From NCBI RefSeq assembly GCF_003334385.1, contig NZ_QOWN01000001.1: 64,000 nucleotides of DNA; one strand, written 5' to 3'. The translations under genes were made by a program, and so were the position numbers. The notes beneath the pieces are model-generated. The model had not been told where the DNA came from and did not search any database. It saw nothing but the letters and a program-made list of their open reading frames with translations. This DNA is from Escherichia coli (GTDB taxonomy: Bacteria > Pseudomonadota > Gammaproteobacteria > Enterobacterales > Enterobacteriaceae). Each line of letters starts with the position of its first letter. The stretch's first letter is position 1. Below, piece after piece: positions 62,105 to 64,000 of this stretch.

Positions 62105-62563
62105 GGGGGAGGGGGGAGATTATGGAACTTTGCTCCTTGTAAGGACTAATTATTTTTGCATATTACTTCATTAGCTGCGATGATTTTTCTTTAATATTCA
62201 TTATGTTAATAAGTTCTGGATGAGTGTGCTCTCATTGGATTTTTTATCCGTCTTGTTCTGCCGCAGGATGAGACTATACATCGTCGAGATCGCAATGATG
62301 ATATGAGTTGTTCCTCCTGCGACGGCTCTAATCAAAAAAGAGCAGGAGTGCTTTTCCATCTATTGCGATGATGGCTTTATTATCTGAAGGATGACAGTCA
62401 CATTTAAAAAATATTTAATCTATAGATCACAATGTAGGGTCATGGAATATATGTATACAACTATTTTCTTCTTCACTTTTAATTATCGTATTCATTATAA
62501 AACTAAGTTAAAAAAACTCCTGGAGAGTGAGTTATTAATATATTTTTAAATAAAATTAAGTTA

Positions 62564-63084
62564 TCATTCATCGATGCACTTTATAGAATCATCAATGGCC
62601 ATAATAGTACTATTAACTCTCAATTTTATATTTTTATCATCACTACAAATATTAACTGAATTTATATCAATGATTTTTTTATTCTTATCTTTTATTTTAT
62701 TTACTGTTTCAATGCAATCAGCGGCAAGTTGGAGTGGATTTAGATTTTTCAGATATGGTCTTATGATCTTTCCCTTACTTAATAAATAGCATGTATAGGA
62801 TTCGGAAAGTCCAGCATCTATTTTGTACCTCATTATATTAGATAAGGATGTGAGAAATTCCTTGTTATCATTCGCAGCCATATATGCCAGTCCGAGTTCA
62901 GCCTCTGCGGCCTTACAGGCAAAATAGCTTAGTGAACACGCTTTTCGTCCCTCTTTAGTACTGGCTGATATTAGTGCCCATAATATTGCTTTGTCTGCCA
63001 AATCTAACTCTCTCTGAAATTGTCTTGCAGTAACTGCACTCGCAGAAATAGAGAAAAAAATACAATTGTTAATAACCTTGCCAT
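62564..63084 (-). pseudogene. Frameshifted gene for a probable secreted protein: ATG at 63082-63084 encodes a signal-peptide-like N-terminus that leaves frame at the T7 run (plus-strand A7, 63054-63060); the body continues in the adjacent frame to the stop at 62564
   Basis: Hand translation: ATG frame gives MARLLTIVFFSLFLRVQLLQDNFRES-stop; body frame gives ...CIFFSISASAVTARQFQRELDLADKAILWAL... with no ATG near its 5' end; one extra T would fuse them into MARLLTIVFFFSISASAVTA|RQF... Confidence 0.55.
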
Positions 63085-63089
63085 ATTTT

Positions 63090-63383
63090 TTAGTCCGTAA
63101 CTGTTAATGTGCTATCTGGCTCTGAAAATATTAACTCATTTAATTTTTGCATGTCATTAGATAAACCAGTTATACAACCCTCGGAACAGAATCGAGGTCC
63201 TAAAGACGGACCAAAAGCGTTTAAACAACTATGTATTGAAAATCCATTGCGATTATAAGTTCCTGTATTAACTGACGGTACTAATCGTATGCCGTCAGGT
63301 TTTCTATTGCTTGCTCCCGGGTCATTAACATTCCAACTCCATAGGCCTTGAGGTATTGGCCATCTATTTATAAATGTGTACAA
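63090..63383 (-). CDS. Hypothetical 97-aa ORF without an ATG start (TTG at 63381-63383, preceded immediately by an in-frame stop); possibly a gene fragment
   Basis: ORF track entry; AT-rich context; no recognisable domain from sequence alone. Confidence 0.25.
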   Translation of the reverse strand: MYTFINRWPIPQGLWSWNVNDPGASNRKPDGIRLVPSVNTGTYNRNGFSIHSCLNAFGPSLGPRFCSEGCITGLSNDMQKLNELIFSEPDSTLTVTD

Positions 63384-63707
63384 CGGGGATTATTTTTACA
63401 TTGCATATTATTACCAGAAGCGACTGGAATACTAAGCACATCATAAAAATTATCATCACATGGTATATCTGAAACACACGAAAGCATACCTAAAGTTATG
63501 CTGTATAAACAGGTGGCTAATCCCAAGGGGATCGATTCCAGAAATCGGGTTCAACGGATACTGATAAAAATTCCACCTACCTTCCAGCCCAATCGGAGCC
63601 TGAGTGTTATACCGCCCCTGCTGCGGTTAATGTTACCGATAATAGTTATAGTACAGCCCTGATTCATCATCATACTACTGCTGCGGCAGTCTGATGAACT
63701 ATTGCTT

Positions 63708-64000
63708 TTACGGATTCTCCTTATTCTTCCTTCTATCCATTCGCTTTAGCTTTTTGAGCTCTTGAAGTTTGCTCTTTGCATCAATATTACCGTTATTTAC
63801 AGCGAATTCCATCCAATAAATAGCTCTATTCAAATTATAATATTCTGATAATGTTGGATTTGTATCTGATAAAAAGACCCCATAATTAAACTGCGCTGTA
63901 ACATTCCCCTGAGATGCTGATCTTTCCAAGAATCGCAATTGTTTGTAAATGTTATTTTTAGTAAAGCAGTAATATTGATATAGTCGAAATGATGCCTCTG
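63708..64000 (-). CDS. C-terminal part of a Sel1/TPR-like repeat protein whose start lies beyond the window end
   Basis: Frame stays open on the minus strand from 63708 to the window edge (...EASFRLYQYYCFTKNNIYKQLRFLERSASQGNVTAQFNYGVFL...); Sel1-like motif spacing. Confidence 0.45.
   Translation of the reverse strand, partial: EASFRLYQYYCFTKNNIYKQLRFLERSASQGNVTAQFNYGVFLSDTNPTLSEYYNLNRAIYWMEFAVNNGNIDAKSKLQELKKLKRMDRRKNKENP

Follow-up and report, generated by a model that had tools for sequence, protein, structure and literature searches.

Remnants of an orphan Rhs toxin-immunity pair at the probable yibH-proximal end of the RhsA element in an Escherichia coli genome

The sequence analysed was a 64-kb window of an Escherichia coli genome, and all coordinates given are those of the whole window. 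The tail of this window (62106/62107-64000), which lies immediately beyond yibH, is very probably the yibH-proximal end of the RhsA element, a polymorphic Rhs toxin island located between yibF and yibH. The feature is already known, as it corresponds to the annotated tail of RhsA in E. coli K-12, and both the link between Rhs proteins, L,D-peptidases and Imm57 and the displacement model used below have been published. The present analysis adds names for the K-12 pseudogenes at the level of protein domains, the precise boundary of the island, three different lesions in Imm57 genes and an invariant SEGC variant of the toxin motif. Every fragment in the tail was identified, and the island boundaries, the lesions and the presence or absence of the island across strains were established by comparison with other genomes. 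The features, listed inwards from the window end, are as follows.

63708-64000, minus strand: 3' part of yibG (C-terminal 97 codons), a Sel1/TPR-like gene of 153 amino acids (aa) that runs off the window edge
63516-63698, minus strand: remnant of an Rhs core (3' end), K-12 pseudogene yibS, with three in-frame stops and a PxxxxDPxGL motif
63093-63515, minus strand: decayed Rhs C-terminal tip of the Tlde1/DUF2778 L,D-peptidase family, K-12 pseudogene yibW
62564-63085, minus strand: Imm57-family (PF15596) immunity pseudogene, annotated in a shorter version as K-12 yibV
62400-62563, no strand: AT-rich spacer with a sigma-70-like site inside
62207-62399, minus strand: internal relic of an ISEc1/ISAs1-family (H-rpt) transposase gene, K-12 pseudogene yibU, with one frameshift and one stop
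62105-62116, no strand: G5AG6 tract GGGGGAGGGGGG, the left edge of the island, directly after the yibH TGA

Many complete E. coli genomes match the last 2 kb of the window with 100% identity, and several do so over the last 12 kb. In the genomes that are 100% identical over the last 2-12 kb, position 64000 is followed by the remainder of yibG and then by an orphan Rhs C-terminal fragment (yibJ), yibA, rhsA and yibF, placing a rhs gene ~2-8 kb past the window end. The tail also matches the distal pseudogenes of the RhsA element of K-12 MG1655 (yibS-yibW-yibV-yibU) in locus, order and sequence, with 99.93% identity over 58347-64000. In strain ECCTRSRTH03, which is 100% identical to window positions 52000-64000, the main rhsA gene (L008 5039-8627) is annotated as frameshifted, with the product 'polymorphic toxin type 34 domain-containing protein', and has a length of 3589 bp compared with 4134 bp in K-12 and E. 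coli C. As this gene is frameshifted, the main Rhs toxin of the strain from which the window derives may be defective too.

The island is not present in all E. coli. It is absent from 1522 of 5426 complete genomes (28%), ST131 and strain KE47 among them, and in these yibH lies next to yibF at a distance of 70 bp, whereas 3479-3685 genomes have a distal end of the window type. When the window was aligned with island-free genomes, homology stopped at 62105, one base past the yibH TGA, and on the yibF side it resumed 39-40 nt upstream of the yibF ATG. The island between yibF and yibH is ~8.2 kb, and island-free genomes hold 32-33 bp of unrelated filler at the island site. Five occupied loci were checked at both ends and, though they carry three different main rhs genes (rhsA, rhsC-like and others), their left and right junctions are the same, indicating that the locus was founded once and then rebuilt internally. 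The 33-bp filler (L004 12107-12139) and the region upstream of rhsA (L001 20270-20285) have the decamer TTATATCACC in common. Local alignment did not extend this match, and it may be the trace of a deletion or a coincidence.

The layer nearest the window end is yibG, which is intact (153 aa) in the genomes that are 100% identical over the last 12 kb; the open reading frame (ORF) at 63708-64000 looks start-less because the window ends there. The product is named sel1 repeat family protein by PGAP, and the full 153-aa protein has weak profile support in Pfam (TPR_27, E 8.3e-4; Sel1, E 1.2). The yibG gene is presumed to be the immunity gene of the next orphan tip, yibJ (orphan 1). The core-end relic yibS starts 9 nt past the yibG stop, and its translation, IRLPQQ(stop)YDDESGLYYNYYR(stop)H(stop)PQQGRY..., closes in the PxxxxDPxGL boundary motif. 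A longer allele of the core end matched the NCBIfam models RHS_core (E 2.9e-62) and Rhs_assc_core (E 1.2e-8), and in a profile search of the PDB the core-end part matched nothing but the ends of the cores in Rhs and Tc proteins of solved structure.

The identity of the toxin tip yibW was revealed by strain 23CRST032, in which a single ORF of 269 aa runs from the end of an Rhs core into an intact domain called Tlde1 by both PGAP and Pfam; the accession of this intact tip is WP_071599171.1. Relative to this allele, the window copy contains one additional base near 63531, a 1-nt deletion together with a stop at ~63367-63371 and a 9-nt in-frame deletion at ~63406, though the putative catalytic block IHSCLNAFGPSLGPRFCSEGCI is still readable. 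After repair of the frameshifts, the window translation matched the Pfam models Tlde1_dom (E 4.2e-5) and YkuD (E 0.021), and the intact allele matched Tlde1_dom with E-values of 5e-7 and 1.1e-7. With two frameshifts, a stop codon and no delivery domain, the window copy is, as judged from its sequence, a pseudogene of this family.

Fifteen homologues of the toxin tip were collected from the genera Escherichia, Ralstonia and Paraburkholderia, from a metagenome bin of Acidobacteriaceae and from metagenome contigs without assignment, and 13 of them matched Tlde1_dom at E <= 0.001. Those that reach far enough upstream begin with an Rhs core end. All 15 share the block H-x-C...FGP...C-x-EGC (x = Ser in 14 of 15), in which the His and the Cys of SEGCI are invariant and are also present in the window, while the second His of the (S/T)HGC motif is replaced by Glu. 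The His and the Cys of the SEGC block are putative catalytic residues, assigned by their position in the motif and not by structural superposition. NCBIfam has no model for either Imm57 or the toxin tip, and a search of the PDB with the single toxin sequence returned only noise. An AlphaFold2 model of the toxin domain had a predicted local distance difference test (pLDDT) score of 71.2, and the top 11 PDB matches found for it with Foldseek all have the L,D-transpeptidase/carboxypeptidase fold (Pgp2, DpaA, LdtMt5, Bd1075 and LdtMt3), with probabilities of 0.84-1.00 and template modelling (TM) scores of 0.42-0.53. An L,D-transpeptidase-like fold is therefore predicted for the toxin tip with moderate confidence.

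The family takes its name from Tlde1, which with its immunity protein Tldi1 (first named Tae5/Tai5) belongs to the SPI-6 type VI secretion system of Salmonella Typhimurium and is represented by Pfam PF10908 (10.1101/2020.02.18.954545; PMC9638812). The Salmonella protein is a periplasm-acting L,D-carboxypeptidase in which a His and a Cys are essential, and its authors found some family members fused to Rhs. The tip described here is similar in belonging to the same Pfam family, in its predicted L,D-transpeptidase-like fold and in having a conserved His and a conserved Cys, and would likewise be a periplasm-acting peptidoglycan toxin with a signal-peptide-bearing immunity protein. However, Tlde1a is a stand-alone 173-aa effector whereas the domain in the window is joined to the end of an Rhs core, and the immunity protein is Imm57 in place of the DUF2195 protein of Tlde1. 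The motif also differs, being SEGC here and (S/T)HGC in LD-transpeptidases, with a His-to-Cys spacing of 19 residues compared with 10 in Tlde1a. Members of this toxin clade would be expected to be active enzymes when intact.

The immunity gene was identified with greater certainty, as the repaired translation of yibV matched Pfam Imm57 with an E-value of 1.9e-47 over model positions 2-100 of 100. The toxin domain ends at 63093 and the Imm57 start codon is at 63085 on the same strand. A 1-nt deletion at 63060/63061 (codon 9/10) puts the ATG and a signal-peptide-like N-terminus, MARLLTIVLFFSISA (MARLLTIV...), out of frame, leaving an open frame of 145 codons from the TTG at 63001, and PGAP annotates the gene as 'frameshifted' in identical genomes. 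As the target of the toxin would be periplasmic, the immunity protein would need a signal peptide, and its loss most likely abolishes the function of the window Imm57.

Three Imm57 lesions were found in the sequences compared, namely the 1-nt deletion (window, K-12 and ETEC6335), a change from A7 to A8 (K-12) and a 5-nt deletion (23CRST032). Over the aligned region 62090-63720, K-12 and the window share identical toxin-tip lesions and have a single difference, in the T-run at 62674-62680 (A7 in the window and A8 in K-12, on the minus strand). The A8 run introduces a second frameshift that restricts yibV to 111 codons in K-12, whereas with A7 the Imm57 frame in the window extends for its 145 codons to the natural stop. 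Intact 173-aa Imm57 alleles are carried as orphans by strains TUM2330 and 45E, and an intact Imm57 protein has the accession WP_000197506.1. Only a minority of strains have intact alleles of the toxin tip and of Imm57, and in each case these are orphans located at the same position. The ratio of nonsynonymous to synonymous changes (pN/pS) between the window allele and an intact Imm57 allele was 0.31, indicating that the gene was under purifying selection before it was broken.

The same two genes were also found together in Ralstonia solanacearum (accession number CDRJ01000001.1; L009 8001-9236), where the gene for a 229-aa protein, in which an Rhs core end is joined to a Tlde1 domain, lies 3 nt ahead of that for a 180-aa Imm57 protein with a hydrophobic N-terminus. 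This pair is surrounded by metabolic genes, the nearest 8 kb being free of rhs genes, and hence is an orphan pair outside any Rhs locus. A pairing of Tox-LD-peptidase domains on RHS repeats with Imm57 immunity proteins was predicted by Zhang et al. 2012 (PMC3482391), and the link between Rhs, L,D-peptidase and Imm57 was repeated in the Tlde1 preprint (10.1101/2020.02.18.954545). From these arrangements we infer that Imm57 is the specific partner of this toxin clade.

The outermost orphan toxin could be seen as representing a distinct, uncharacterised L,D-peptidase clade with an invariant SEGC, always located after an Rhs core end and paired with Imm57, in which case the intact Imm57 alleles in a minority of E. 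coli might protect, as stand-alone proteins, against competitors delivering this toxin. This extended interpretation appears unlikely, and the window copy would still be a dead relic under it.

Alternatively, the tail might be a working reservoir of orphan immunity genes, in which yibG and the truncated Imm57 (145 aa from TTG 63001) still protect against the Rhs toxins of competitors, and this would explain the persistence of the module in about two thirds of E. coli (3686 of 5426 genomes). It would be consistent with the intact state of yibG in identical genomes, the 145 open codons of Imm57, the past purifying selection indicated by the pN/pS ratio and the survival of intact Imm57 orphans in TUM2330 and 45E. 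However, the deletion removes the signal peptide that would be needed against a peptidoglycan-targeting toxin in the periplasm, the Ralstonia homologue having a hydrophobic N-terminus as well. In addition, the different inactivating Imm57 lesions among the sequences point to relaxed selection, and the pN/pS value mostly reflects divergence older than the lesion. A protective role for the window copy is thus very unlikely, and the tail is best regarded as the decayed end of the RhsA element.

Beyond Imm57, the relic yibU corresponds to residues 96-159 of the 378 residues of YdcC (tblastn E 2.8e-13, in two frames), and the DNA is ~77% identical to ydcC/ybfD over 62169-62401. Compared with the ISEc1/H-rpt elements (ydcC, ybfD and yhhI), to which it has ~77% nucleotide identity and 56-61% aa identity over YdcC 96-159, yibU is reduced to one internal sixth of the gene and is disrupted by a frameshift and a stop. 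No complete transposase gene and no terminal inverted repeats or other insertion sequence (IS) ends are present. Inspection of all frames of the spacers at 62106-62206 and 62400-62563, for which no further search was made, gave no assignable coding remnant. The second of these includes a sigma-70-like site (TTAACT/GATAAT; 62511-62482, minus strand), and the same hexamers between yibV and yibU have been listed as a 'constitutive promoter' of the RpoD holoenzyme in vitro (PMC3946193). The site is probably a chance promoter-like sequence in AT-rich foreign DNA. The frequency of promoter-like sites was not above that in shuffled sequences.

The yibU relic, together with IS3 and IS1 insertions found in the region in some strains, might be taken to mean that the AT-rich DNA is debris of an IS or other mobile element that inserted beside yibH independently of the Rhs element. 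However, the relic amounts to 64 of 378 codons and has no IS ends, a rhs gene is present at the locus in every inspected genome that has this DNA, and none of it is present where the Rhs island is missing, making an independent insertion highly improbable. Furthermore, H-rpt elements are reportedly known components of Rhs elements, according to papers from the Hill laboratory.

The sequence-only reading of this DNA, based on the letters and their ORFs, had placed the tail at the distal end of an Rhs-associated region, and the gene order in the identical genomes, with a rhs gene nearby, supports this. Its description of the tail as holding only start-less or frameshifted minus-strand ORFs applies to the core relic, the toxin tip and Imm57, which are frameshifted or stop-ridden, but not to 63708-64000, which is the intact yibG cut by the window edge. 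Similarly, its expectation of orphan toxin and immunity gene fragments holds for the core-end relic, the Tlde1-type tip and Imm57 but not for the transposase relic at 62207-62399, and its statement that none of the fragments could be assigned a function is superseded, as every fragment now has a name.

The base composition was examined across the boundary with the neighbouring genes, which are as follows.

60968-62104: yibH, with its TGA stop at 62102-62104
60603-60965: yibI
58153-60066, minus strand: mtlA

The GC content is 0.524 across yibI-yibH and 0.352 across 62107-64000, with a minimum of 0.207 at 62400-62563 and a local bump of 0.47 at the core relic (63516-63698). The change after yibH is real and sharp. 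Relative to all other 1894-bp windows of the 64 kb the tail has a z-score of -2.0, and ~10% of those windows are as low. The lowest 1-kb values elsewhere in the window, down to 0.286, fall within ~27-38.5 kb, the sole other stretch equally AT-rich. From gene order, we take this stretch (~27000-38500) to be the waa (lipopolysaccharide core) cluster. The mtlA-yibI intergenic region (60100-60600) is also AT-rich, with a GC content of ~0.37-0.43 (0.37 in the lowest 300-nt window), but its conservation in every strain compared means that it is a native regulatory region and not part of the island.

Both the sharp drop in GC content and the G-tract directly after the yibH stop (GGGGGAGGGGGG at 62105-62116) had been pointed out in the earlier reading and were recovered here. 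There is one other G4AG4-type tract in the 64 kb, and in strain 23CRST032 the tract has the different form GAGTAGGGAAGGGGGAG. Folding of the G-tract region gave a z-score of -0.29, no better than shuffled sequence. No terminator-like sites were found at the tail or the G-tract, and an Rfam scan of 60000-64000 (E <= 1) gave no match. The earlier proposal to compare the boundary across strains in search of an insertion scar at 62105 was followed, but neither a target-site duplication nor direct repeats were found at the two island junctions. The 28% of complete E. coli genomes that are missing the region show that it is not one conserved with intact genes. For the same reason, and given the variable G-tract and the negative folding, terminator and Rfam results, the idea that the tail is native conserved non-coding DNA serving yibH as a terminator, small RNA or G-tract regulatory element is almost certainly wrong, despite the position of the tract at the yibH stop and the sigma-70-like site reported in vitro between yibV and yibU.

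The arrangement of the tail matches exactly what would be expected under the C-terminal displacement model. In this model, Rhs loci diversify via recombination at the conserved end of the core, whereby a new tip and its immunity gene would replace the resident pair and the old pair would be pushed downstream as an unexpressed orphan. The window would then hold the oldest, outermost layers of an orphan stack, which in minus-strand order would be the end of yibG, then orphan 2 (the core-end relic, the Tlde1-type toxin and the periplasmic Imm57) and finally the scrap of an H-rpt (ISEc1) transposase gene. Displaced pairs, having no promoter, start codon or delivery domain, would be expected to decay, and the low GC content reflects the fact that Rhs tips and their immunity genes are of foreign origin. 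Orphan 2 is to all appearances dead in this genome, a conclusion drawn from the lesions in its reading frames, and we infer the displacement history from the order of the layers.

Several observations weigh against this interpretation or parts of it. The rhsA gene lies outside the window, and its presence is extrapolated from identical genomes. Support for the toxin from Pfam and from the predicted fold is moderate (E-values of 1e-7 to 4e-5, pLDDT 71, Foldseek E ~2e-3 and TM ~0.5), and a sequence profile of the toxin clade searched against the PDB did not retrieve the solved structure of Tlde1a. Finally, no full-length Rhs protein with exactly this tip was found, as the 25 proteins returned were all <= 248 aa; in the searches made here the SEGC clade turned up solely as detached tips. 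The homologue search relies on shared words and many of the matches are on short contigs, hence the absence of a full-length form is not proven by it. As no such protein was seen, an origin of yibW as the working tip of a complete rhs gene can only be proposed.

Comparison with known systems is consistent with the displacement model. An Rhs locus between yibF and yibH was listed by Jackson 2009, in which dissociated tips were recognised by core homology and a GC peak (PMC2935791), and rhs-CT/rhsI orphan modules were described by Poole 2011 (PMC3150448). The tail resembles such modules in its placement downstream of a full rhs and its immunity gene, as seen in the order of genes in identical genomes. 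It also has the same core piece ending in PxxxxDPxGL, a variable tip and a small immunity ORF, and its AT-rich sequence shows a local rise in GC content over the core relic. However, unlike in those modules, here the toxin and the immunity gene are both inactivated, and no working toxin would be possible even if the tip were recombined onto rhsA.

A second strain-variable junction was observed elsewhere in the window, at 55319/55320, the stop-codon end of yibL, where the homology that the window shares with six further E. coli loci breaks off exactly at 55319. Several of these strains have genes for a YadA-like trimeric autotransporter and a SadB/DUF3251 lipoprotein beside yibL, and E. coli C has yhfX-yhfT instead. 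Just upstream of this junction, the window includes three long ORFs (51330-54975), presumably lldD, lldR and lldP.

The significance of these findings is mainly for annotation, as yibS can be named as an Rhs core end, yibW as a Tlde1-type tip, yibV as an Imm57 gene without its signal peptide and yibU as an H-rpt relic. While it raises no new mechanistic question, the tail of RhsA provides a clean textbook case of the way in which old toxin-immunity pairs are stacked up at Rhs loci and later lost.

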